Virus record (IMG/VR): IMGVR_UViG_3300021197_001923
Coordinates: 1 to 55,110 of that record
Length of the DNA stretch: 55,110 nucleotides
Reading direction: 5' to 3' (one strand)
From: a virus
Lineage: Duplodnaviria; Caudoviricetes
Below, piece by piece: positions 18,462 through 41,775 of the stretch (within the stretch, counting starts at the first letter, position 1; each line of letters starts with the position of its first letter). Position numbers and translations under genes: made by a program. The notes below the pieces were generated by a model that was given only the letters and a program-made list of their open reading frames with translations, was not told the origin of the DNA and made no database searches.

Positions 18462-18486
18462 AAGGCCCCTTCGGGGGCCTTTTTTA
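18462..18486. terminator. Terminator between convergent genes
   Basis: AAGGCCCC-TTCG-GGGGCCTT-TTTT. Confidence 0.85.
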
Positions 18487-19776
18487 TGCCCGTGGATATT
18501 GTAGCTTCAACATTGTTTTCACCGCTACATCCCAATCGATTTTACCTGAATATCCACCGTATGTTTCATCTGGCACTGCATGACCAATAATACGTGCCGC
18601 TAAGTTTTGTTCTACTTGAGCGTTTTCAAAACGATTTGCCATGGTGGCTCGAAAGCTATGGAACGCATGGCGCTTGGTCTCGAAACCGAGTTTAGACTTG
18701 AGCCTATTAAACCGATGGCTAATGCCTTTGGTACGAGTTTTATATTTGTTGTTAGATGACTCTCCTGAAATCAAAAAGCCATCTGTGCTTGTTTGCTTTA
18801 AGCGTTCAACCATTTGTTGAATATCAGGATGGATCGGTATTTCACGCTCGCCATTATAGGTTTTTGAGTCCTCTACCACAAAACGGTCGTCTAAAACCGA
18901 GGTTACCTTCATGTTGCCGATTTCGTTTAAACGCATCCCAGTGTACATGCCCAGCTTAATAATATCGATTAAGTTTTGATCGTCCTTTTCAACAGCAGCC
19001 TCCAGCAGCATGTAGCATTCTGCTACCTCGTAGGGTTTATAAGTGACGTTCGTACTCTTTTTTCTAGCAGCTTTTGTTCGATTGACTGGGGGTAGTATAG
19101 ATGATCCCACCGCTAAATTTGTGGCCTCAGTATATTTCCCCTCACAATACGCCCAAAGTTTATTCACGTACCCAAAGTTTTTGTTCACTGTTCGGCGTGT
19201 CCACTCTGGGTAACCGTTACGACCTTGCAGCATATCATCCACCCAAATTTTGAGCTCTGACTTTTCTATCGTTTCAAAAAACGGAAAGCGCTTGCAGAAA
19301 TTACCCAGCAAAAACGTTACAGCGCCATCTTTGCCTGAAGGCACGTACCCATGCTGCGTCACCCACTCATCCACGTACTTGGTGGTAGGAGTATAGGCTT
19401 TTGTTGCCATCCCAAATGCTCGCACCTTGTCCTTCGTTTTTTCGTCCAATTCTGCGCCAGGTCGCAGGGTGTGCGCCACCGTTTCAAAGGCACTCTCGCC
19501 GCCGCCAAGTTCTTCAAATAGCCTTCTGGATTCTTCAGCAGTTGCGTCGAGGTCAACAATTTCGCCTCGCTCTTTTGCCCGTGCAGCTTTGATTAAACTT
19601 TTCCAGCGATGGACATGCGGCAGCTTTCTAATTTCAGCCTCGGCAAAGTTATGGGTCTCCAGCGTTTGGATGAACTTTCTTTTGCCAAAAGTGGCGTGTA
19701 AATCTTTCGGCACTTGCATCACAGCGTAGTAAGTTTTGAACTGTGTGATGAGATATTGCCCGTTAGCTTTAGTCAT
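18484..19776 (-). CDS. int: Tyrosine integrase with DUF6538-like N-terminal domain
   Basis: YYAVMQVPKDL...LET N-terminus; catalytic TGMR, SKT, HSFR, GH, Y. Confidence 0.92.
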   Translation of the reverse strand: MTKANGQYLITQFKTYYAVMQVPKDLHATFGKRKFIQTLETHNFAEAEIRKLPHVHRWKSLIKAARAKERGEIVDLDATAEESRRLFEELGGGESAFETVAHTLRPGAELDEKTKDKVRAFGMATKAYTPTTKYVDEWVTQHGYVPSGKDGAVTFLLGNFCKRFPFFETIEKSELKIWVDDMLQGRNGYPEWTRRTVNKNFGYVNKLWAYCEGKYTEATNLAVGSSILPPVNRTKAARKKSTNVTYKPYEVAECYMLLEAAVEKDDQNLIDIIKLGMYTGMRLNEIGNMKVTSVLDDRFVVEDSKTYNGEREIPIHPDIQQMVERLKQTSTDGFLISGESSNNKYKTRTKGISHRFNRLKSKLGFETKRHAFHSFRATMANRFENAQVEQNLAARIIGHAVPDETYGGYSGKIDWDVAVKTMLKLQYPRA

Positions 19777-20849: not shown

Positions 20850-21284
20850 TCACTCTGGCGGTTTTGCCAGAAGGTTGATGATCTGAATAGCTTGCTTTGA
20901 GACATCATAGAATTTTTCACCGACAGGCACCTTAACGTTTGGTATTACCTCAATGGGAGCGGCCAGCACTGTGTGACGACTAATAATTGCTGCGTGGGTC
21001 ATGCCTTGGTTTAGCACAAAAAAATGGCATGGGCGTTCTGTGAACTTTTTCTTTCGATACGGAATCCGCAGTGTGGGAAAATTGAACTCAGGCCCATGCC
21101 ATCCTAATTTCACTTCAACTTCACAGCCAAAGGATTTGCCCTTGCCTCTCACCAGCAGGTCAACGCCGAAATGGTCAGGGTTTTCGTTGCACTCATAACC
21201 CAACTGTTCCCAAAACTTTTGGGCAGTGAATTTTGCAGCATTATCGTATTGCTCGTAAACATCTCGCTCGAATTGTTTAAGCAC
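20850..21284 (-). CDS. PD-(D/E)XK nuclease-fold protein
   Basis: GVDLLV...EVEVK motif. Confidence 0.7.
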   Translation of the reverse strand: MLKQFERDVYEQYDNAAKFTAQKFWEQLGYECNENPDHFGVDLLVRGKGKSFGCEVEVKLGWHGPEFNFPTLRIPYRKKKFTERPCHFFVLNQGMTHAAIISRHTVLAAPIEVIPNVKVPVGEKFYDVSKQAIQIINLLAKPPE

Positions 21285-21447
21285 GGCGCCGCTCCTGGTT
21301 TTTCAGGTATGCGCAGTTCCAGCCTCGAATCCATTCACGGGCGTAAAATGATTGCGGCCTATATGGGCACCGATCATCGGTTAAAAAAGCGTTCCAGCCA
21401 ACTTGGTAGGGCCGCTCTGCGGGGAAAAAACGTTTCATGTACTGCAT
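21277..21447 (-). CDS. 56-aa Rmf/CrpP-fold-like protein (not in the ORF track)
   Basis: MQYMKRFF...YQVGWNAF...RCPY...REWIRGW; GGAGAG RBS; coupled to the next gene. Confidence 0.7.
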   Translation of the reverse strand: MQYMKRFFPAERPYQVGWNAFLTDDRCPYRPQSFYAREWIRGWNCAYLKNQERRRA

Positions 21448-21477
21448 CCATATTCTCTCCCCCCATCATGGTTTGAG

Positions 21478-23160
21478 CTAGACGCCGCAGCTGCCACCTG
21501 TGCCGCTGATGTCGCAAATATCGTGAGTTTCTATTGCTTCATCAAATTCCTCGCCAAGCTTGGCCACAGCCTCGCTGTATGGGACTGATGTAAGCGGTTG
21601 GCCACCACGGGAACCGTCTGGGTAACAAGTGAAGCCACGAAGCCCGTGAGCATATTTGGCAAGGGTTTCGGCAAACTTTGGCACGGTGTCTTCGTTATTT
21701 AACTTGGTGCCCCACGCCGGCAGATTGATCGTTGAGGAAATCGACATATCAACGTAACTTTGTACATCACTTTGAAATTTCATGCGCCGTTCATAATCGC
21801 TGGCCAAATCCAAAGCGCTCTCAATTGTATCGGGAGAAGCTCCATAGCGATCAATCAGTTGCTGCGCAGCGGAATCGACAACGTATTGGTAAACCCAGCG
21901 ACTATTACCTTTCAGGTAACGCCTTTTATAAGCAACGGCAAAGATAGGCTCAACACCAGTAGAGGTACCAGCCAATATGCCAATCGAACCTGTCGGGGCG
22001 ATGGCTCGATTAGCAACAGGGCGAGTGATGCTAAAGCGATCCGCAGTTTCTTTGCTAACTTTGTCAGAAATACCTTCGTAAACCGAAAGCCAATTATGTA
22101 GTTCAGGGGTAACTTCATAGCGTGATCCTCTTTGTATAAGCCACTCGTGGATGCCCATTAAGCCCAAGCCCAAGCGACGGTTTTTCGCACGGGTCAATTC
22201 AACTTGGGGGTAAGGCAGCTTTGCTTTCATTGTTCCGCAAAGCAAAAATTTTGTGGCCAGTTCTACGACTTCCGCCATTTCGTAGATGTCTTCGATACGG
22301 CCCATGTTAATGCTGCCTAAGTTGCAAACATCACTGTCATCAGCGGACGTAATTTCCGTACAAGCGTTTCTTAACGTTTCGTTTTCTTTGTCGAAGAAAT
22401 TGAAGCTAAAACCAGGTTCGGCGGTCTTCATGGCTTGGTGGACATTCTCCAAAAATACATCGCCAACATCGCCAGTTTTGTAATAATTAAGCAGCCATTC
22501 GGTGTCATAATTCACGCTGATATTGGTCATATCTAGAGGGGCAGGAAAATTGAAATCGTGCTGCTTAATATCCCATAAGCTTTGGCCCGTATTTCCCACC
22601 ATCATAGACTGCCAATCCTTGGCGTGAAGGAAATCCAGTATATCGCCGTGCTTCCAGTTCAAGCTAGCGTAAATGGCCGATCTACGAGAACCGCCTTGCA
22701 TCACCTTCGACCCAATAGAATTGATCATCTGCATCTTTGGGATCGGGCCTGAAGCTGTGCCGCCAGTTTGATGAATTGGAGATCCAGCGGGGCGGTAAAC
22801 TGAATAATCGATGCCGATTCCGCCGCCAGTCATGAGGCAGCTTTCCGCCTTCCAACTAAGGTTTGCCCAGTCTTCACGAGTGTCTTCTTCGGCTTTCAAC
22901 AAAAAACAATTATTGAAAAATTTATTCGAGCGACCAGCGTAATAAAGATACCGGCCCCCAGGGATGAATTTCAAATCCCTTATGAACTCGTACAAGCGCT
23001 GGACATCATCCTTTTGCAAAAACTCGCTACATACATCTTCGACCAGAGTTGATGCCAAAGCATCCCAAGTCTCGGCCCCCTCATGGGCATATTTATGATT
23101 AAAAATGTCTTCAGAAAATTTGCTCCGAAACATTGGGTTGAGGTTGCTTTTAAAACTCAT
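21478..23160 (-). CDS. nrdJ: Ribonucleotide reductase, class II (B12-dependent)
   Basis: GGRY, NNC, NACTE, CNLGSIN, LGLG and APTG motifs; C-terminal Cys pair; no beta subunit gene. Confidence 0.85.
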   Translation of the reverse strand: MSFKSNLNPMFRSKFSEDIFNHKYAHEGAETWDALASTLVEDVCSEFLQKDDVQRLYEFIRDLKFIPGGRYLYYAGRSNKFFNNCFLLKAEEDTREDWANLSWKAESCLMTGGGIGIDYSVYRPAGSPIHQTGGTASGPIPKMQMINSIGSKVMQGGSRRSAIYASLNWKHGDILDFLHAKDWQSMMVGNTGQSLWDIKQHDFNFPAPLDMTNISVNYDTEWLLNYYKTGDVGDVFLENVHQAMKTAEPGFSFNFFDKENETLRNACTEITSADDSDVCNLGSINMGRIEDIYEMAEVVELATKFLLCGTMKAKLPYPQVELTRAKNRRLGLGLMGIHEWLIQRGSRYEVTPELHNWLSVYEGISDKVSKETADRFSITRPVANRAIAPTGSIGILAGTSTGVEPIFAVAYKRRYLKGNSRWVYQYVVDSAAQQLIDRYGASPDTIESALDLASDYERRMKFQSDVQSYVDMSISSTINLPAWGTKLNNEDTVPKFAETLAKYAHGLRGFTCYPDGSRGGQPLTSVPYSEAVAKLGEEFDEAIETHDICDISGTGGSCGV

Positions 23161-30766: not shown

Positions 30767-31600
30767 TTATTTATTATTTATTTGTTTAACTGATAAGTGC
30801 TGCGCATCATTGGTCTCCTCCAAACGCAACACACGCTTAACTTCACATATGCCCAATTCTTTTGGGTCTCTGTCTGTAATTCTCAGAAATACACTGCCTC
30901 TAACTTTTTTTATTAGCTTCACAGCTTTGCTGCTTGCATCGTTGTCTAACAATATAAATATATTTACATATATTTGTAAAGCATTTCTTAGTGCACTAGT
31001 TAAGTTAGTCCCTAGCAGCGCAACACCAGCCAAGTCTGGGATGCGGGATATGGAGCAGGCTGAAGCTGCGTCTTCAACCAAGACTGCGTTTTTACCCTTC
31101 CCCACGTGAATACCTTCACTCGTATCGCCGTAAGTAATCCATTTAGGACCGGCGCCTAATAAATTGCGCCCCACAGCACCAGTCAAAGATTTATTATAAA
31201 ACAGCACCCGCTTTTCACGAGGTGCATATCGCATCCGTATCAATCCCGATTCATATGCATCGATTGAATTTACCGAGCGCAGATATTCCAGAGCGTGGGG
31301 CACATTAGCCAAGCTGGTAGTGATTTCAGGAATTTGTAACTTTGGCTTGCTGCGCACCTTTTCAGGCCCGTGGTCGTGATAACGTTTGGCTGCTGTCAGG
31401 GATCTCTCGCCTTGATAACTGCCCCGCACCTCACAGCTGGCCCTGAAGCAATTCCAAAGCAGTTGGCCTGATGCAAGCCGATCGATGGTAAATTTCTTCT
31501 GCCCGCCACAAAACGGGCAATCCAAGGTTTTGCGCTCGCCCTCTGCAATCTTAATGCGGCGGACCTCGGTCAATTGTTCACGATAGCTATACATTTTCAT
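30767..31600 (-). CDS. DNA primase (Zn finger plus TOPRIM)
   Basis: CPFC...NCFRASC; VEDA; LLGT; LDND. Confidence 0.9.
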   Translation of the reverse strand: MKMYSYREQLTEVRRIKIAEGERKTLDCPFCGGQKKFTIDRLASGQLLWNCFRASCEVRGSYQGERSLTAAKRYHDHGPEKVRSKPKLQIPEITTSLANVPHALEYLRSVNSIDAYESGLIRMRYAPREKRVLFYNKSLTGAVGRNLLGAGPKWITYGDTSEGIHVGKGKNAVLVEDAASACSISRIPDLAGVALLGTNLTSALRNALQIYVNIFILLDNDASSKAVKLIKKVRGSVFLRITDRDPKELGICEVKRVLRLEETNDAQHLSVKQINNK

Positions 31601-33633: not shown

Positions 33634-33772
33634 AACTCTTTCCGCCGTATTTCAGGTCGTACTGTTGGCAGAGGTATAACATTTCTTGGTGCAGTTGTTC
33701 AAGAAGCCGGTCCTCTGCCGATTTACGCTTCTGTATGCGGTCCAATGATGCTGGACGTTCGAGTTTACCCAT
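33632..33772 (-). CDS. Small hypothetical protein
   Basis: GAGG RBS; overlaps the recombinase stop. Confidence 0.5.
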   Translation of the reverse strand: MGKLERPASLDRIQKRKSAEDRLLEQLHQEMLYLCQQYDLKYGGKS

Positions 33773-34853
33773 ATGTCGCCTCACGTTTGCTTTGAGCAGC
33801 TTCGGCCTGACGGCGGGTGGTCTGCACATAAGTATTCAGCACTGCACGGGATCGATGGCCAGTGATACTTCTCAGCTGATCTTCGCTACAGCCAGCATCT
33901 CCAAGCTCGGTCGCAGCACTGCGGCGCAAGTCAGATATTTTGAGGTTGTGGTCGAGGCCGGCAAGCTTACGCACCAATTCTGCTTTCTTGCGGTATAACC
34001 TTCCAGAATACCGCTCGCCTGTACCCTCGTATTTAGCAATGGTCTCGTCATGCTTGCAGTTTGATAGCAGCTGTATTTGGCGGATGCGCTCCCGCAACAT
34101 CGCTGTCGCAGGGATGTCCATGTCGGCGCCGGTCTTTTGCTGCTTAAATACGAAAAAACCGTCTTGATAGTTAGACCAAGTCATATTGCGACAATCGCTT
34201 GGACGCTGGCCCAATTCAAATGCCATAGCAGCGATCGTACCGATACTTGTAAGCCCGTTGGAATCTGCAGTTGCGATAAACATATTCAATTCGTCACGAT
34301 GCCAGCGAGTGGTACGGGGCGAAGTTGGTAGCAATGTCAGATCTGTGAATGGGTTGCTCACGTTGAAATCAAAGCTTGGCGCCTTGTTCCAGATCCGCCG
34401 CAAAACCTTTATCACCTGATTGGCCGTGGCCAAGGATTTCTGCTTGCGCAACTCCTTATATATAGCTTCCGCCTGTCGTGGGCGGATATTGGCAACCAGC
34501 TGCTCTGTAAATGGCTTACTGCCAATTAGCGTTGCTTCCAGCACAATACCCAACATCGTGGCGTAATTTCGTTGGCTATTCTCTGCTAAAGCGTCCCAGC
34601 TGCTCGAATTTTGATAGGCTAGAACCAGGGCGCCAACAGTGCTGTGAGTACGATCCTGAAACCGCTCACCTGACTCCTTATATATACCCAGCGCTTTAAT
34701 CGCCTCGTCGATGCGGGCCAAGGCGTCTTCCTTCCGGTCGTATTGCTCGTATTTAAAACCCAGTTTGTCAGACAGGGATTTACTCGGCTTGAAGGCGTGG
34801 GCAATCTTGCCACTCTTCAGATTAATCTCTTTATAGTGCGGAATTTTGGTCAT
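33765..34853 (-). CDS. Tyrosine recombinase (HMO-2011-type core integrase-like)
   Basis: GQRPSD, QQKTG, DLRR, TGH, TY motifs; GGAG RBS. Confidence 0.88.
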   Translation of the reverse strand: MTKIPHYKEINLKSGKIAHAFKPSKSLSDKLGFKYEQYDRKEDALARIDEAIKALGIYKESGERFQDRTHSTVGALVLAYQNSSSWDALAENSQRNYATMLGIVLEATLIGSKPFTEQLVANIRPRQAEAIYKELRKQKSLATANQVIKVLRRIWNKAPSFDFNVSNPFTDLTLLPTSPRTTRWHRDELNMFIATADSNGLTSIGTIAAMAFELGQRPSDCRNMTWSNYQDGFFVFKQQKTGADMDIPATAMLRERIRQIQLLSNCKHDETIAKYEGTGERYSGRLYRKKAELVRKLAGLDHNLKISDLRRSAATELGDAGCSEDQLRSITGHRSRAVLNTYVQTTRRQAEAAQSKREATYG

Positions 34854-34880
34854 TACTGTCTCCAGATAGATATGGCACAA

Positions 34881-34909
34881 AGCATAGGTCCCGCACGTCA
34901 AAACGTCAA
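34881..34909 (-). promoter_or_regulatory. Recombinase promoter
   Basis: TTGACG-17-TATGCT. Confidence 0.7.
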
Positions 34910-34925
34910 TCCGTAAATTTAGCTA

Positions 34926-34954
34926 TTGCATAACATAGTGCACTACAGTAAAAA
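34926..34954 (+). promoter_or_regulatory. sRNA-B promoter with operator in the spacer
   Basis: TTGCAT-17-TAAAAA; TAGTGCACTA at 34936-34945. Confidence 0.55.
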
Positions 34955-34960
34955 TGATTC

Positions 34961-35100
34961 TGTACCCAGCGGATAAGCAATCTCCTCCCATCATGCTGTT
35001 GGGTACAAAGGGCAAATCTTCTACGCTCTTGTCCTTTTTGCTAGTTGGTGCCGTTTCTGACCTTTTTCTCTCAATTCTACTCCAGAAACGGCACCTTTTT
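34961..35100 (+). ncRNA. Candidate sRNA-B: three hairpins with CU-rich (anti-SD) loops
   Basis: 12-bp, 8-bp and 13-bp stems; UCUCCUCCC loop; terminal T5; starts about 7 nt after the -10. Confidence 0.7.
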
Positions 35101-35217
35101 CACTCGCACGTCAAACGCATTTGTATGCTCATATGTATATACAGCCTTCTGACAACTTATCCTGACATAACGCTGAACTTTGCAATTAGTGATTTCACGT
35201 AAAATTTATTTCTTTTT

Positions 35218-35266
35218 CATAGTGCACTATGTTTTGCTTTACAAATTTAGACCTTTTTGGGATTCT
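35218..35266 (+). promoter_or_regulatory. Promoter with operator
   Basis: CATAGTGCACTATG then TTTACA-17-GATTCT. Confidence 0.6.
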
Positions 35267-35337
35267 GATTGCACCGGCCGGCGCCCGACCAGCGCTGCTT
35301 TGGCCGGCTCATATCTAGCAAAAAGGAAAACCCAACC

Positions 35338-36162
35338 ATGGGATACAATTTCAGAAACACGGAAACGGCAACGCCGGCATTGCTCAACGGCAATGTGAAT
35401 TTAACCTTAAAAAGCCGAAACAAGAAAACCGGTGATATACCGGTATCAACCAGCGGAAAGCAAACATGCCCCGACTCTTGCCCACTAAAAGCAAGCGGCG
35501 CTTGTTATGCCATGACGGGCCCGCTTGGCTTATTCTGGCATAAAGTATCGATCGGCAATGCCGGCGCAACATATGACCATTTTGTAAAACAAGTGGCCGC
35601 TTTGCCTGATGGTCAATTGTGGCGCCACAATCAAAGCGGAGACTTGCAACCATCATACACCGATCGGGAAACGATCGACGCACCGAAATTGCTGGCATTG
35701 GTTGAAGCAAATCGGGGCCGCAAGGGTTTTACATTCTCGCATTTCGACCCGATCGCAAACCCGCTCAACAATTATGCGCTGGCCATGGCCAATAATAACG
35801 GCTTCACGATCAATTTAAGCGGAAACGATGTAAACCACGCCGATCGGCTGGCAGATACAAATTGCGGGCCGGTTGTTTCAGTTTTGCCGCTTGAATATGA
35901 GCGCAGAACAGAACGGACGCCGGCCGGCAAGCAATGGGCCGAAACGATCGCCGAATATAAAGACCGGCTGGCAAGCTTGCCCAAAGCAACACCGGGCGGG
36001 CGCCGCTTGGTTGTTTGTCCTGCCACCTATTCGGACGATGTTTCTTGTAAGACTTGCGGGCTTTGCCAAAAGCAACGGGCAACAATCATCGGTTTTCCTG
36101 CACATGGCACAAGCCGGCGCAAAGCCGATGCCGTCGCAAAGGGAGAATTGACCCATGCCTGA
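35338..36162 (+). CDS. Cys-rich DUF7227 / gp88-like protein
   Basis: SRNKKTGDIPVS, TCPDSCP, CYA, WRHNQSGD, CPA...C..C.LC, GFPAHG; AAGGA RBS. Confidence 0.75.
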   Translation: MGYNFRNTETATPALLNGNVNLTLKSRNKKTGDIPVSTSGKQTCPDSCPLKASGACYAMTGPLGLFWHKVSIGNAGATYDHFVKQVAALPDGQLWRHNQSGDLQPSYTDRETIDAPKLLALVEANRGRKGFTFSHFDPIANPLNNYALAMANNNGFTINLSGNDVNHADRLADTNCGPVVSVLPLEYERRTERTPAGKQWAETIAEYKDRLASLPKATPGGRRLVVCPATYSDDVSCKTCGLCQKQRATIIGFPAHGTSRRKADAVAKGELTHA

Positions 36163-36424
36163 TATTTATTGTTCAAAATGTGGCGAGCCATGGGACGCCG
36201 ATGAATTGCACGACGTGCCGGCGATCAATCCCGATCGGGGCGCCGGTGTCTTAACTTACAAGCAAGCGGCCAAAATGTTTCCGGCCTATGGTTGCGGGCT
36301 TTGGGTCGATCGTTTCGACGGTGGCGCTTTTACACCGTGCACGGCGCCGATCGTCGATGATGTCAGGGCAGAACATGCATCCGTCATGCATTCAATAAGC
36401 CCGTTTCCGGATGATTGGTTGTGA
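36155..36424 (+). CDS. Small Cys-containing early protein
   Basis: DIYCSKCGEPWD; GGAG RBS. Confidence 0.75.
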   Translation: MPDIYCSKCGEPWDADELHDVPAINPDRGAGVLTYKQAAKMFPAYGCGLWVDRFDGGAFTPCTAPIVDDVRAEHASVMHSISPFPDDWL

Positions 36425-36426
36425 TA

Positions 36427-36606
36427 ATGTATTTACTCGCATGGACAATTAACCACGGCCAAAACAATCTGATCGACCATCAGATAATAGAGGATGAGCC
36501 GCAAGCTGTTGCGCAATGGGTTGATTCAATCCAGACGCAAGCCGACGTTCATTGTTGGGCCGCTTGCAAGATATTAGAGGCGAGCGAGCCGCATTGGATA
36601 GAATAA
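36427..36606 (+). CDS. Hypothetical protein
   Basis: Coupled ORF; SEPHW end. Confidence 0.6.
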   Translation: MYLLAWTINHGQNNLIDHQIIEDEPQAVAQWVDSIQTQADVHCWAACKILEASEPHWIE

Positions 36607-36607
36607 C

Positions 36608-36679
36608 ATGGCGCCCATATATCAGGCGATCGGCTTTGCTGTGTTTTGGCTGGCCGTGATCGATCTAGCCTATAATTGA
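36608..36679 (+). CDS. 23-aa hydrophobic peptide
   Basis: MAPIYQAIGFAVFWLAVIDLAYN between the previous stop and a terminator. Confidence 0.4.
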   Translation: MAPIYQAIGFAVFWLAVIDLAYN

Positions 36680-38282: not shown

Positions 38283-38429
38283 ATGAAAGCTGGTAAAGCT
38301 AAATGTGGTGCGTCCAATCCCCCTGCACAAAAATCTACGCCCAAAATGATGGGTGGAGGTATGGCTTACAAAAACTCTAAGCCCAAAATGATGTATGGCG
38401 GAATGGCGCATAAGAAGAAAAAGGCCTGA
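38283..38429 (+). CDS. Small basic protein with two PKMMxGGMA repeats
   Basis: AGGAG RBS. Confidence 0.75.
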   Translation: MKAGKAKCGASNPPAQKSTPKMMGGGMAYKNSKPKMMYGGMAHKKKKA

Positions 38430-40877: not shown

Positions 40878-41225
40878 TTAAAAATTATATCCTTTGGCGA
40901 TACAGAACCGTTTCAATGCGGAAATCAGTATTATCGTAGCGGCAACATTCTCCTGATTTGAATGTTTCCAGTATGATGAATCATACTCTTCGGCGACCAA
41001 TTCGTGTAACTGCAATAAATTAATCTTCGTTTCAGTAAAGCATTCGTAAAGCTTCATTTCTTCAGGGCCTGGATTTATCAACAGACCTTCAAAAGCACCC
41101 AACAAGTGAACCATTTGACCCTGCTGGTCATACCTATCCCAAACCGATTTATTGAAGGCATTAGCCTGAGTTACCAGAGTGATTAGGAAAACTAGCGGAA
41201 GTAATTTTATTTGACGTAAGCGCAT
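40878..41225 (-). CDS. Exported protein, Rap1a/Tai4-like pattern
   Basis: Signal peptide ending ANA; G..E.L...C...AA.II..AL...C. Confidence 0.55.
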   Translation of the reverse strand: MRLRQIKLLPLVFLITLVTQANAFNKSVWDRYDQQGQMVHLLGAFEGLLINPGPEEMKLYECFTETKINLLQLHELVAEEYDSSYWKHSNQENVAATIILISALKRFCIAKGYNF

Positions 41226-41590
41226 CGCATTGGCCTTTGTCCAGCTTGAATTGTACTGCTGTATGCAATTGCTCCCTGAATGTGATGAAAGCAAGCATTC
41301 TGCAGCAGCATTCGTTGAGGGTCGAGGGCGAACATACAAGAACTTTGTTCAGATTTTTCAAACGACGACCATGAAATCATTTTACCTGTCCACGAACCCA
41401 CAGGATATGTGGCATCCGCTTGGTCAGTTTTAAATCTTACGGTTGCTGTAGATTTATCAAAATCCAAAAATATAAGGTAATCAGGCTTTTCAATGTTGCA
41501 GACTAAAGCAACCACGCTGTCAGAGGCAGCAACCTGAGAGGCTACTATTATAGAAAACGCCGTGGCTATATTTCGTAATAGCTTAGTCAT
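41207..41590 (-). CDS. Exported hypothetical protein
   Basis: Signal peptide; several Cys. Confidence 0.6.
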   Translation of the reverse strand: MTKLLRNIATAFSIIVASQVAASDSVVALVCNIEKPDYLIFLDFDKSTATVRFKTDQADATYPVGSWTGKMISWSSFEKSEQSSCMFALDPQRMLLQNACFHHIQGAIAYSSTIQAGQRPMRCAYVK

Positions 41591-41735
41591 TTTTATCTTC
41601 CAACATCACATTGATCTGCTTCACGACTTGATCGTTTTCACCTTCCAGAAGCGTGACTCGTTCTGACAGTTCTTTGATTTTCCGGTTAAGTAAAAACCAC
41701 ATGATTATCACTAAAAGTAACGCTAGTGCTTCCAT
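41583..41735 (-). CDS. 50-aa single-TM protein (not in the ORF track)
   Basis: MEALALLLVIIMWFLLNRK...; GAGGG RBS. Confidence 0.55.
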   Translation of the reverse strand: MEALALLLVIIMWFLLNRKIKELSERVTLLEGENDQVVKQINVMLEDKND

Positions 41736-41775
41736 AATCACCCTCTCAATTTAAGATCAAACTGTACGGAAAAGT

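Follow-up and report, generated by a model that had tools for sequence, protein, structure and literature searches.

A predicted small RNA gene beside the integrase of a marine HMO-2011-type phage and its candidate pairing site at an Rmf-like reading frame

What does a marine phage encode in the gap ahead of its integrase gene, and on what might the product act? The window analyzed here, a stretch of 55,110 nucleotides, corresponds to a complete record (55 kb) of an HMO-2011-type marine phage; published work describes such phages as a dominant group among marine viruses. An earlier note, made from the letters alone, had placed at 34961-35100 a small RNA called sRNA-B that would silence a distant, Rmf-like gene by pairing across its ribosome-binding site. 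To our knowledge, phage-encoded regulatory RNAs are few, and the known ones come from enteric model phages. Taken as a whole, the interpretation offered in that note is partly supported by the analyses that follow.

sRNA-B is predicted to fold into three hairpins

Folding of positions 34961-35105 of the + strand with RNAfold returned three hairpins with a free energy of -47.1 kcal/mol (z -6.48), and none of 200 shuffled sequences folded as well (Table 1), in agreement with the three-hairpin RNA of the earlier note. The opposite strand gave a z of -3.52, and a T run is found on the + strand only. Our terminator scan does not list the predicted terminator because it permits loops of 3-8 nt only. 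A G>A difference was present at 35025, in the loop of hairpin 2, in one DNA run.

Table 1. Predicted features of the sRNA-B locus and of its candidate pairing sites
Feature	Position	Strand	Basis
Start-region hairpin in cis: G-run arm (21464-21454) paired with codons R-F-F-P (~21431-21421), both ATGs in the loop	21421..21464	-	RNAfold
Rmf-like ORF, 56 aa from ATG 21447	21277..21447	-	Pfam RMF, E 3.9e-4
Proposed target (mRNA sequence CAUGAUGGGGGGAGA), 8 nt past the RNR stop codon	21456..21470	-	sequence, duplex scans
Tyrosine integrase, divergent neighbor marking the position of the RNA family	33765..34853	-	Pfam PF00589, E 1.1e-11; phrog_1
Promoter-like site of the integrase: boxes TTGACG and TATGCT with a 17-nt spacer; placed back to back with the sRNA-B promoter	34881..34909	-	promoter scan
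Putative sRNA-B promoter: TTGCAT (34926-34931), 17-nt spacer, TAAAAA(T) (34949-34955)	34926..34955	+	read from sequence
Palindrome TAGTGCACTA inside the promoter spacer	34936..34945	+	sequence
Hairpin 1: 12-bp stem (34961-34972 with 34996-35007), 23-nt loop (34973-34995)	34961..35007	+	RNAfold
Seed UCUCCUCCCAUCAUG (DNA TCTCCTCCCATCATG), fully unpaired in the hairpin 1 loop	34981..34995	+	sequence, RNAfold
Hairpin 2: 8-bp stem, 13-nt loop	35008..35036	+	RNAfold
UCCUUUUUGCUAG, holding the conserved (U)UGCUAG linker motif of the family	35032..35044	+	sequence
Intrinsic terminator: 13-bp stem (35047-35095), 23-nt loop, TTTTT (35096-35100)	35047..35100	+	RNAfold
CTCTCAATT within the terminator loop (loop 3)	35068..35076	+	sequence
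CUAGCAAAAAGGA in the DUF7227 leader (ATG 35338), covering the AAGGA ribosome site	35315..35327	+	sequence

The earlier note also had the RNA start where a promoter predicts it. The putative promoter consists of -35/-10-like boxes that were read by eye and share their layout with relatives, where a TTG[ACT]NN box lies 18-26 nt past an anchor sequence in 33 of 51 family regions. These boxes and their layout favor the proposed start, but the sigma-70 promoter scan called no promoter on the + strand at sRNA-B. The anchor of the relatives, "GTCAA(T)", is the -35 box of the integrase promoter-like site, and its spacing from the integrase start is similar across the 51 kept regions. Operator-like palindromes and repeated boxes were also observed in the gap upstream of the integrase.

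The neighbors of sRNA-B are the integrase and a DUF7227 gene. A DNA similarity search with positions 34000-36200 found no match among deposited phages. When an alignment of the integrase was compared with MAG contigs, only four distant relatives were recovered (26-34% identity; Legionellales, Alphaproteobacteria, and Beijerinckiaceae), which does not settle the phage host. Among 22 sequencing runs listed for this stretch, 20 contain part of it and two are recorded as RNA (0.09 of the words each); near-identical marine contigs with this stretch occur in 17 DNA runs. Considered as assembled contigs only, one RNA library covers 34662-34946 and, in four further short pieces, 35536-36648, and the other covers 34174-34556; none of these contigs, which could be DNA carry-over, lies over 34961-35100. 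Small RNAs are usually lost from such RNA libraries, and a gap between contigs does not speak for absence of the RNA.

RNAs of the same layout lie beside the integrase in related phages

A search of viral contigs with the integrase as a single query gave 17 pattern matches, none of which was confirmed, and an exact 22-mer of the loop had no match in the viral contigs. With an integrase alignment as the query, 136 relatives were recovered, from which 80 loci were kept. An automatic rule combining the anchor and a terminator extracted 56 distinct upstream regions, including that of the window; five were mis-anchored and set aside, leaving 51, while ten loci gave no region because they were too short or carried a TTTCTTT tail. 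In nearly all integrase relatives, the predicted RNA is encoded upstream of the integrase but on the opposite strand, with back-to-back promoters. Its parts are a short hairpin whose loop is of the CCUCCC type, a CUAG linker, and a terminator rich in GC. All 51 kept regions contain a C-rich 5-mer, which is unpaired at four or more of its five positions in the MFE fold in 47 of them. On the opposite strand, only 4 of 51 regions contain such a motif. The density of the motif is 3.33 per 100 nt, versus 0.23 in the 13 records.

The locus in the window follows this plan. Its anchor is located 43-51 nt from the integrase start (similar to most of the other 50 kept regions, in which 42-124 nt is usual and distances reach ~270 nt if the match starts within the integrase), loop 1 contains an unpaired CCUCC/CUCCC stretch, and the linker TTTGCTAGTT (35037-35046), of the CUAG type ((U)UGCUAG(U)), precedes a terminator that is less GC rich and has a much larger loop than in most family members. 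Conservation does not extend to the sequence of the RNA, even among phages whose DUF7227 is 95% identical. In the cultured roseophages CRP-212 and CRP-3, the RNA falls in an unannotated gap.

The stems of the family covary. RNAalifold reported compensatory changes in 6 of 12 pairs among 18 members, and in 47 model-aligned matches (44 distinct) 88.7% of the cells pair, versus 47-54% when the partners are slid. Double-change cells number 57, compared to 14.8 in shuffles, a value that none of 500 shuffles reached, and many G:U pairs fit the RNA strand only. A covariance model built from 18 simple members (R1) was run on 100 loci and gave 40 matches at E<=0.01, each with the same position and direction with respect to the integrase; they include the nearest DUF7227 relatives of the window (L086-L088; E 1.4e-5), L006, and the cultured CRP-3. 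In L006, the integrase is on the - strand. R1 misses the window's own RNA (34961-35100) at E<=10 with filters off, so that membership of sRNA-B in the family is read from synteny (its position) and motifs only. The best R1 match in the window has an E value of 0.27 and lies inside an ORF.

Could the region instead be a set of DNA signals (divergent promoters, operators, and an attP site) followed by an ordinary terminator, or else the leader of the rightward operon or a small protein gene? The operator-like palindromes and repeated boxes would suit such a reading, and so would an attP site, as integrases usually have one nearby; an 82-aa ORF (34954-35202) also spans the region. Stems that covary around a loop motif that stays, with G:U pairs that fit one strand only, argue against this explanation. 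Moreover, the next gene is convergent in many relatives, and the RNA therefore cannot be its leader. The small-protein reading was rejected, the ORF being without a ribosome site and running through the terminator. An attP site at the RNA was likewise rejected for CRP-3: its phage-side primers for checking integration, as described in the accessible portion of PMC6918029, lie at 2829 and 3642, far from the RNA at 258-330, which would place attP elsewhere in that phage. We disfavor these alternatives and judge them very improbable. Given its positional counterparts with covarying stems in related phages, the first proposal of a small RNA gene that stands alone on the + strand and presents a C-rich, anti-Shine-Dalgarno loop holds up. 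On the evidence of sequence comparison, the marine phage very probably has in sRNA-B a genuine gene for a small regulatory RNA, very probably one of a widespread and undescribed set of RNA genes beside the integrase. In the literature searched on HMO-2011-type phages, roseophages, and phage anti-Shine-Dalgarno small RNAs, we found no description of an integrase-side RNA, nor any regulatory RNA from the abundant marine podoviruses, and the words sRNA, non-coding, and attP are absent from the main text, as available, of a survey of the HMO-2011 group in ISME J (PMC9038755).

sRNA-B differs from described small RNAs

The comparison with Rfam, suggested in the earlier note, which also pointed to the cuckoo RNAs of alphaproteobacteria, produced no match at the gathering score in the whole window, none at E<=10 in 34800-35400, and none at the gathering score in 20 related loci. 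According to the available parts of the two sources, cuckoo RNAs have two to four adjacent hairpins with CCUCCUCCC in every loop (PMC4615179), and the Rhodobacter RNAs CcsR1-4 are processed from the 3′ untranslated region of a DUF1127 gene with an RpoHI/HII promoter (PMC8034643). In sRNA-B, only loop 1 has a related sequence, UCUCCUCCC (8 of 9 letters), loop 2 (the CAAATCTTCTACGCTCTT region) and loop 3 are without the motif, and the neighbors are the integrase and DUF7227 genes instead of a DUF1127 gene with a stress-sigma promoter. sRNA-B is therefore not a cuckoo RNA by the definition given in those parts, and no Rfam model matches it. What sRNA-B shares with cuckoo/CcsR1-4 RNAs (RSs0680, ar14-type) is an unpaired C-rich anti-Shine-Dalgarno motif in a hairpin loop that is kept while the stems vary. 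In addition, the Rhodobacteraceae, which are the cultured hosts of related phages, are reported in the same portions of these papers to carry two-hairpin cuckoo RNAs (PMC4615179; PMC8034643). In contrast to cuckoo/CcsR RNAs, sRNA-B has the motif in one of three loops, has its own (putative) promoter and terminator, and is encoded by a phage beside the integrase.

sRNA-B can also be compared with the small RNAs of temperate phages (c4 of P1/P7, the CI RNA of P4, sar of P22, and OOP of lambda) and with the prophage RNA DicF, which are cis-antisense or processed from the operon that they control. Like them, sRNA-B is short, lies near an immunity/integration region, and has a proposed pairing at or near a phage ribosome-binding site; unlike them, it lies 13.5 kb from its proposed target and has a generic anti-Shine-Dalgarno core, and it is not known to be related to them in sequence. 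Among the Firmicutes, RsaE is another RNA with C-rich loops. In the available part of PMC4615179, the C-rich UCCC loops of RNAIII are proposed to start pairing with ribosome-binding sites. The likeness of sRNA-B to these Firmicutes RNAs lies in C-rich loops proposed for pairing with ribosome sites; phylum and architecture differ, and any relationship would be at most one of convergence.

The loop of hairpin 1 is complementary to the start region of an Rmf-like ORF

The loop sequence TCTCCTCCCATCATG (34981-34995) and TCTCCCCCCATCATG (21456-21470), both read on the + strand, are alike in 14 of 15 letters, and the sole mismatch (T versus C) becomes a G:U pair when RNA from the + strand meets mRNA from the - strand. 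Coordinates and letters are thus as the earlier note gave them. The target lies between the stop codon of a class II RNR gene (21478-21480) and the Rmf-like ORF, and the predicted duplex ends upstream of both in-frame starts of this ORF, at 9 nt from ATG 21447 and 18 nt from ATG 21438, the second of which is homologous to the start used in relatives. Homologues of the Rmf-like ORF were found in 12 related records. The ORF scores 20.9 bits against Pfam RMF (PF04957), below the gathering score of 27.9 bits, and five of nine phage homologues match RMF at E<=0.1 (best, 21.4 bits), none reaching the cut-off; judged by these scores, "Rmf-like" is a lead and not a family membership. The description of the target as a possibly toxic gene found no support, the RMF match being below threshold only. 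The features of a type I toxin-antitoxin pair are missing as well, as the RNA is 13.5 kb away and the target protein is basic and without a hydrophobic stretch.

To rank candidate sites, RNAduplex runs with the whole RNA body over 12 genomes gave long, loop-ridden duplexes and were replaced by loop-only scans and scans in 14-nt windows. Against the 74 start regions of our own calling, the loop ranked the Rmf-like region first at -28.4 kcal/mol, with the next at -18.9 (a gap of 9.5), and the Rmf-like site was the best trans site on both genome strands (-27.8). An energy of -28.4 was reached by 2 of 1,000 shuffles of the full loop and by 26 of 1,000 shuffles of the flanks in which the TCTCCTCCC core was kept; for the whole RNA body in 14-nt windows, none of 117 shuffles reached the observed -26.2. 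By a cruder measure, the count of unbroken pairs with free G:U, the match was not exceptional (21 of 300 shuffles reached 15). Cofolding that included intramolecular structure left a net gain of only -6.1 kcal/mol, with at least eight other genes faring better. sRNA-B has an accessible seed whose complementarity to a translation start region exceeds chance, with the structure on the target side as a caveat. The 15-nt match itself had been spotted after the fact.

In G004, a partial genome and the nearest relative with both parts, only an 8-bp core is kept and the Rmf-like start region ranks 2 of 24. Rank 1 in G004 is an artefact ORF antisense to the RNA itself. The pairing is not conserved in ten other genomes with both RNA and gene, where the Rmf-like start region ranks from 5 to 49 (37/74, 27/58, 16/57, 13/67, 35/57, 11/64, 5/73, 49/79, 6/59, and 7/70). 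In several of the relatives, the G-rich sites of the Rmf-like genes are weak or absent. The complementarity singled out earlier is thus the best phage site and statistically unusual but lacks conservation in relatives, and, as far as the letters go, the 15-base target is real but special to the lineage of this phage.

The match to the Rmf-like gene might then be fortuitous or secondary, the RNA being real and acting through its C-rich loop on host mRNAs with strong ribosome sites, its real and conserved targets, or on many G-rich phage sites at once. The host targets would possibly be the mRNAs that CCUCCUCCC (CcsR/cuckoo) RNAs of the host regulate, which the reports from the Rhodobacteraceae, infected by the cultured relatives, would favor. 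The family conserves the C-rich motif only and not the extended seed, no phage gene family is consistently the top target in 12 genomes, and the 26 flank shuffles that equal the match with the core kept point in the same direction. Against this explanation, the top sites in the other 11 genomes reach only -13 to -19, the Rmf-like site stands 9.5 kcal/mol clear of the next one, and no whole-body shuffle attained the observed energy. We consider a fortuitous match possible, if doubtful.

We favor, with a probability of roughly 0.55, the reading in which sRNA-B is an independently transcribed RNA of ~140 nt, the local version of the integrase-side family, with the Rmf-like ORF as its main phage target and repression as the effect. 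It would be transcribed away from the integrase from the back-to-back promoter and would end at the intrinsic terminator. The family would be fast evolving, its constant part being a C-rich, 16S-like (anti-Shine-Dalgarno) stretch left unpaired in a loop or linker, which makes base pairing with G-rich ribosome-binding regions of mRNAs its most likely mode of action. In the phage of the window, a loop grown to 23 nt would form a 15-nt duplex with the G-run that shortly precedes the Rmf-like ORF. The GGGGGGAGAG site for ATG 21447 would thereby be occluded, and repression of this main phage target would be the most likely outcome. The analysis establishes the sequences, the fold, the family, its covariation, and the match statistics, and from these we infer transcription, pairing in vivo, the sign of the regulation, and any role in lysis-lysogeny or host take-over.

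Silencing, as proposed in the earlier note, would follow from occlusion of the start region, but the G-run doubles as the 5′ arm of a predicted hairpin around the start codon, so that the regulation could have either sign. RNAfold predicts this hairpin for G004 and G013 too, with modest z-scores across the three genomes (-0.8, -2.7, and -1.4). In the predicted mRNA fold, the site begins with 5 unpaired nt, which could thus serve as a toehold. Pairing might activate: an RNA bound to the G-run would displace the 3′ arm (codons F-F-P) and free the Rmf-like start region, following the anti-antisense logic of DsrA on rpoS, a model for activation by hairpin opening. Such an effect would fit the prediction of the hairpin in all three genomes, among which the sequences of its arms differ, as well as the working ribosome site (GAGG) and start of G004 and G013, which are in the loop 16-17 nt past the G-run; the homologous start of the window, ATG 21438, is 18 nt past the duplex. 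However, the G-run of the window is itself a strong ribosome site, at an ideal 7 nt from ATG 21447, and would be covered by the duplex, and the modest hairpin z-scores also speak against activation, which we regard as unlikely.

On a broader and rather speculative view, which we rate as improbable as a whole, the RNAs of HMO-2011-type phages, each displaying a copy of the ribosomal anti-Shine-Dalgarno sequence, would mimic host CCUCCUCCC (CcsR/cuckoo) stress RNAs or compete with ribosomes at strong start sites, and so reprogram host translation or set the choice between lysis and lysogeny; some lineages would extend the loop to control phage genes, such as the Rmf homologue. If expressed, the family is open to direct tests, as both CRP-3 and CRP-212 are cultured together with their host, Rhodobacteraceae FZCC0040. 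It would then reveal the way in which translation or lysogeny is steered by these phages, and the anti-Shine-Dalgarno small RNAs of Alphaproteobacteria would gain a phage branch; the RNA-target pair of the window would connect a phage RNA with a phage-encoded homologue of a ribosome-hibernation factor.

Other candidate pairing sites

Loop 3 had been noted to match next to a second ribosome-binding site. Its CTCTCAATT has a 9-letter match with 41743-41751, located 8-16 nt upstream of ATG 41735 of a small - strand ORF. The match is present beside a start, but by our own estimate a 9-mer match is expected by chance, and the gene at 41743 is outside the four best sites of loop 3. Among the other ATGATGGG sites in G000, G004, and G013, a start region is involved only at the Rmf-like gene and at the G004 ORF antisense to the RNA.

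A site at 38335-38370, with a nearly equal raw energy (-27.5), is inside a conserved 48-aa coding sequence at codons MMGGG and is probably fortuitous. It was rejected as a target, as the homologue in L002 encodes MMSGG and the loops of the L002 small RNA are without the CAUCAU stretch, which gives no sign of covariation.

In a comparative ranking of 322 protein clusters over the 12 genomes, no phage gene family was consistently at the top. The best mean rank fractions (0.17-0.19) belong to an 826-aa protein, a phrog_32327 protein, and the integrase, and by eye these ranks appear to follow the G-richness of the start regions. The second-best predicted phage target is the DUF7227 leader, where 35315-35327 is a perfect 13-nt complement of the linker at 35032-35044; this leader is kept in L002, L003, and L005.

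A predicted small RNA beside the integrase gene

The window (55,110 bases, the entire IMG/VR virus record) has a completeness rating of 100%, with genes running leftward from 18 to 35 kb and rightward from 1 to 18 kb and from 35 to 55 kb. By tblastn, its integrase is nearest to those of the Roseobacter phages CRP-212, CRP-235, and CRP-3 (37 to 39% identity; hosts Rhodobacteraceae), with a more distant match in Puniceispirillum phage HMO-2011, and we therefore regard the phage as an HMO-2011-type marine podovirus. Runs containing this stretch are labeled as seawater or marine metagenomes; as the host, one may reasonably guess a marine alphaproteobacterium. Two tyrosine recombinase genes flank the leftward block, one at each end.

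Features of the window, in order of position
Feature	Coordinates	Direction or strand	Remark
Second integrase	18484-19776	leftward block	DUF6538 N-terminal domain
Rmf-like ORF	21277-21447	leftward block	small
Predicted Rmf-like mRNA hairpin	21421-21464	-	
Rmf-like site (near-copy of the seed)	21456-21470	-	
Class II ribonucleotide reductase (RNR)	21478-23160	leftward block	
Primase, helicase-size ORF, polymerase-size ORF		leftward block	
Tyrosine integrase	33765-34853	leftward block	first gene of the block
sRNA-B	34961-35100	+	three hairpins
sRNA-B linker	35032-35044	+	UGCUAG motif
DUF7227 ribosome site	35315-35327		
DUF7227 gene	35338-36162		485-base gap to integrase
Lys/Met/Gly-rich protein gene	38283-38429		48 aa
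Two ORFs in the rightward late block	41207-41741	-	127 aa and ~50 aa
Loop 3 match	41743-41751		
TAGTGCACTA palindromes	26332, 29871, 30989, 33443, 34936, 35220		10 bp, six copies
GCACGTCAA boxes	34893-34901, 35106-35114		

On the + strand of the gap between the integrase and DUF7227 genes, a TTGCAT box, separated by a 17-nt spacer from TAAAAA(T), precedes three hairpins starting at 34961 and a five-T run. The sequence features described in the earlier note (promoter-like boxes, hairpins, the 15-mer, and its near-copy) are all present in the window. The predicted sRNA-B fold has an energy of -47.1 kcal/mol (z score of -6.48), which none of 200 shuffles equaled; the opposite strand gives a weaker fold (z score of -3.52) and is without a T run. 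The 15-mer seed lies entirely inside the 23-nt loop of hairpin 1. A sigma-70 scan made no call for the putative + strand promoter because its -35 box is TTGCAT. Assembled contigs from two RNA libraries covered parts of the integrase gene and the promoter region, with sRNA-B in neither, and those of run X18 included further short pieces within 35536-36648. A 3,768-base contig from the seawater DNA run X1 differs from the window at a single position over 33800-35290, a G>A change at 35025 in the loop of hairpin 2.

The palindrome TAGTGCACTA has an estimated chance expectation of about 0.05 in the window. According to the ORF lists, five of its six copies are in gaps closely upstream of genes, including one in the sRNA-B promoter spacer and one ahead of the DUF7227 gene, and the copy at 30989 is within the primase ORF. 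Related phages have TATAGTGCA-like boxes at the equivalent promoter position, and the palindrome resembles an operator site for a dimeric phage regulator or, alternatively, a promoter element that is shared. A second box, GCACGTCAA (longer form ACT(C/G)GCACGTCAA), also occurs in the related loci L002 (~2414 and ~2765) and L006 (~2495 and ~2783). In most relatives, it comes after the sRNA terminator, and it also borders inserted small genes; read from the complementary strand as TTGACGTGC, it resembles a -35 box, and one window copy is that of the integrase promoter.

A family of integrase-adjacent RNAs with C-rich loops

The larger result of this analysis is an undescribed RNA family located beside the integrase gene in an abundant marine phage group, two cultured members of which permit testing. 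The sequence of sRNA-B is not conserved even where the DUF7227 protein is 95% identical, alignment being limited to the 75 nt before DUF7227, and the same position is taken in those relatives by another hairpin RNA, one that has C-rich loops and a terminator. Four aligned integrases, used as the query, yielded 136 relatives, from which 80 loci were kept. A recurrent layout was found on the strand opposite the integrase, i.e., a GTCAA(T) box, a TTGCNN box, a short hairpin, a linker, a GC-rich hairpin, and a T run. The GTCAA(T) box is the TTGAC -35 box of the integrase promoter read from the other strand. The short-hairpin loop is CCUCCC, CUCCC, or similar, and the linker is often (U)UGCUAG(U) or CACUAG.

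By the GTCAA(T) anchor and a terminator, an automatic rule recognized 56 distinct regions, including that of the window, and 51 remained after removal of five mis-anchored ones; the 10 loci that yielded no region were too short or had a TTTCTTT-type tail missed by the rule. The TTGCNN box lies about 15 nt past the anchor in 33 of the 51 regions, mainly at offset 20. All 51 contain a C-rich 5-mer, at least four-fifths unpaired in 47 of them, and only four have such motifs on the opposite strand. The kept regions contain 3.33 of these motifs per 100 nt versus 0.23 in 13 phage records. Compensatory changes were seen in 6 of 12 consensus pairs among 18 sequences. When 47 matches (44 distinct) were aligned to the covariance model R1, 88.7% of cells paired versus 47 to 54% with slid partners, and 57 cells had changes on both sides versus 14.8 in shuffles (0/500); this alignment was fitted to the model and so favors the structure, but the slid controls have this bias as well. 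Frequent G:U pairs are compatible with the sRNA strand only.

R1, built from 18 simple members, produced 40 matches at an E value of ≤0.01 in 100 loci, uniform in position and orientation relative to the integrase. Among them are cultured phage CRP-3 and loci L086 to L088, the closest relatives of the window by DUF7227. In the deposited Roseobacter phages, the small RNA occupies a gap that separates gp01 from the integrase and has no annotation, on the - strand in both CRP-212 (L170, ~240-336) and CRP-3 (L171, 258-330). The comparison with Rfam proposed in the earlier note returned no matching family in Rfam 15 for the window or for 20 related loci, and literature searches found no description of such an integrase-adjacent RNA family. 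R1 did not recover sRNA-B itself, an outlier whose first stem has 12 bp and whose loop has 23 nt, with one additional hairpin and a terminator richer in AU; its placement in the family is based on where it lies, on the promoter layout, and on the C-rich loop, the CUAG linker, and the terminator rather than on model score.

Relatives have a small acidic gene (64 to 87 aa), absent from the window, that is convergent with the sRNA and lies between it and the next rightward gene, for instance, L002 2516-2710, L004 2502-2711, L006 2139-2402, and gp01 of CRP-212 and CRP-3. L006 has an additional Xre-type HTH gene at that place (2572-2772).

Other identities were considered for sRNA-B. A leader of the next gene is rejected, since in many relatives that gene faces the RNA, as is a protein gene, the 82-aa ORF being without a ribosome site and extending through the terminator. 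According to an mSystems paper (PMC6918029), which gives primers, CRP-3 integrates at a tRNA-Met gene; the two phage-side primers map to 2829 and 3642 of the CRP-3 record, distant from the RNA at 258-330, and attP is rejected on this basis. As defined in two papers (PMC4615179 and PMC8034643), cuckoo RNAs consist of two to four adjacent hairpins with CCUCCUCCC in every loop, whereas sRNA-B has eight of these nine letters in one loop of three. By that definition, the cuckoo label suggested earlier is wrong: sRNA-B resembles cuckoo RNAs in its would-be mode of action but is not a member.

The Rmf-like leader as a candidate target

The near-copy of the seed begins 8 nt past the RNR stop codon on the mRNA strand, directly ahead of the Rmf-like ORF. 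When loop 1 was scanned against both strands, this site was the best of the trans sites (-27.8 kcal/mol), and among 74 start regions from simple gene calls made in this analysis, the Rmf-like region ranked first at -28.4 kcal/mol, the next being at -18.9. Its value was reached by 2 of 1,000 full loop shuffles and by 26 of 1,000 with the anti-SD core held in place; no whole-body shuffle (0/117; mean of -19.3, SD of 1.7) reached -26.2. These controls make a chance match unlikely (roughly 0.002 to 0.03), for a match that was found after the fact.

In related record G004, the Rmf-like start region ranked 2 of 24 with an 8-bp core; its ranks in ten other genomes were 37/74, 27/58, 16/57, 13/67, 35/57, 11/64, 5/73, 49/79, 6/59, and 7/70. 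The pairing is thus not conserved, and its extended form is a trait of the window's lineage. The Rmf-like genes of several relatives have almost no ribosome site, and comparative ranking revealed no consistent top target among other phage gene families.

The predicted mRNA fold bears on the direction of regulation. The G-run of the site pairs with UUUUUUCCCC, the F-F-P codons shortly after the ORF start, so the sRNA-B loop would compete with the 3' arm of a hairpin whose loop holds both candidate start codons. Records G004 and G013 have the same predicted hairpin with other arm sequences, the hairpin being kept in three lineages, and a separate GAGG site within their loop serves the start; the z scores are modest (-0.8, -2.7, and -1.4). 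When folding of both molecules is counted, a net gain of -6.1 kcal/mol is left, below that of at least eight other genes; five bases at the start of the site are unpaired and could act as a toehold. By covering GGGGGGAGAG, 7 nt ahead of the ATG at 21447, sRNA-B would repress translation; by opening the hairpin for the ATG at 21438, it might instead activate it. We favor repression because the strong ribosome site is ideally spaced.

Each of the 12 related records yielding a match, G and W records counted (L082, L083, and L173 to L182), carries the Rmf-like gene, with the conserved protein pattern ...Y..F....C.YR......EW.RG(F/W)..., and Pfam RMF gave a subthreshold match in five of nine homologues. 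A phage homologue of a ribosome-hibernation factor, if such it is, merits its own study. The earlier interpretation of sRNA-B as a trans-encoded anti-Shine-Dalgarno RNA was right in kind; silencing and the Rmf-like gene as its conserved purpose are uncertain, as is toxicity of the gene, for which our analysis offers no support.

The second-best raw duplex of loop 1 (-27.5 kcal/mol) is with codons ATGATGGGTGGAGG of the Lys/Met/Gly-rich protein gene and is probably fortuitous. This conserved protein has a repeated KMMGGGMA-like motif and relatives in records G006, G008, G009, and G012 and loci L002 and L005.

Other candidate pairings of sRNA-B

Over 13 nt, the linker is perfectly complementary to the DUF7227 ribosome site, which ranks second among 73 start regions. 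The AU-rich duplex is equaled in energy by 14 of 117 shuffles, and at least 12 unbroken Watson-Crick pairs arose in 6 of 300 shuffles. The L002 leader is identical over these 13 letters and the L002 linker has two changes, with 12 of 13 positions still pairing when matched manually. As a lead, the DUF7227 leader is a better second target candidate than the loop 3 site put forward earlier. The latter match does exist, exact over nine letters and covering the ribosome site of a small ORF on the - strand, but falls outside the four best loop 3 sites; by our estimate, nine-letter matches are expected by chance. The two - strand ORFs at 41207-41741 directly precede the terminase-region genes, and by eye, the shorter one has a hydrophobic N-terminal stretch.
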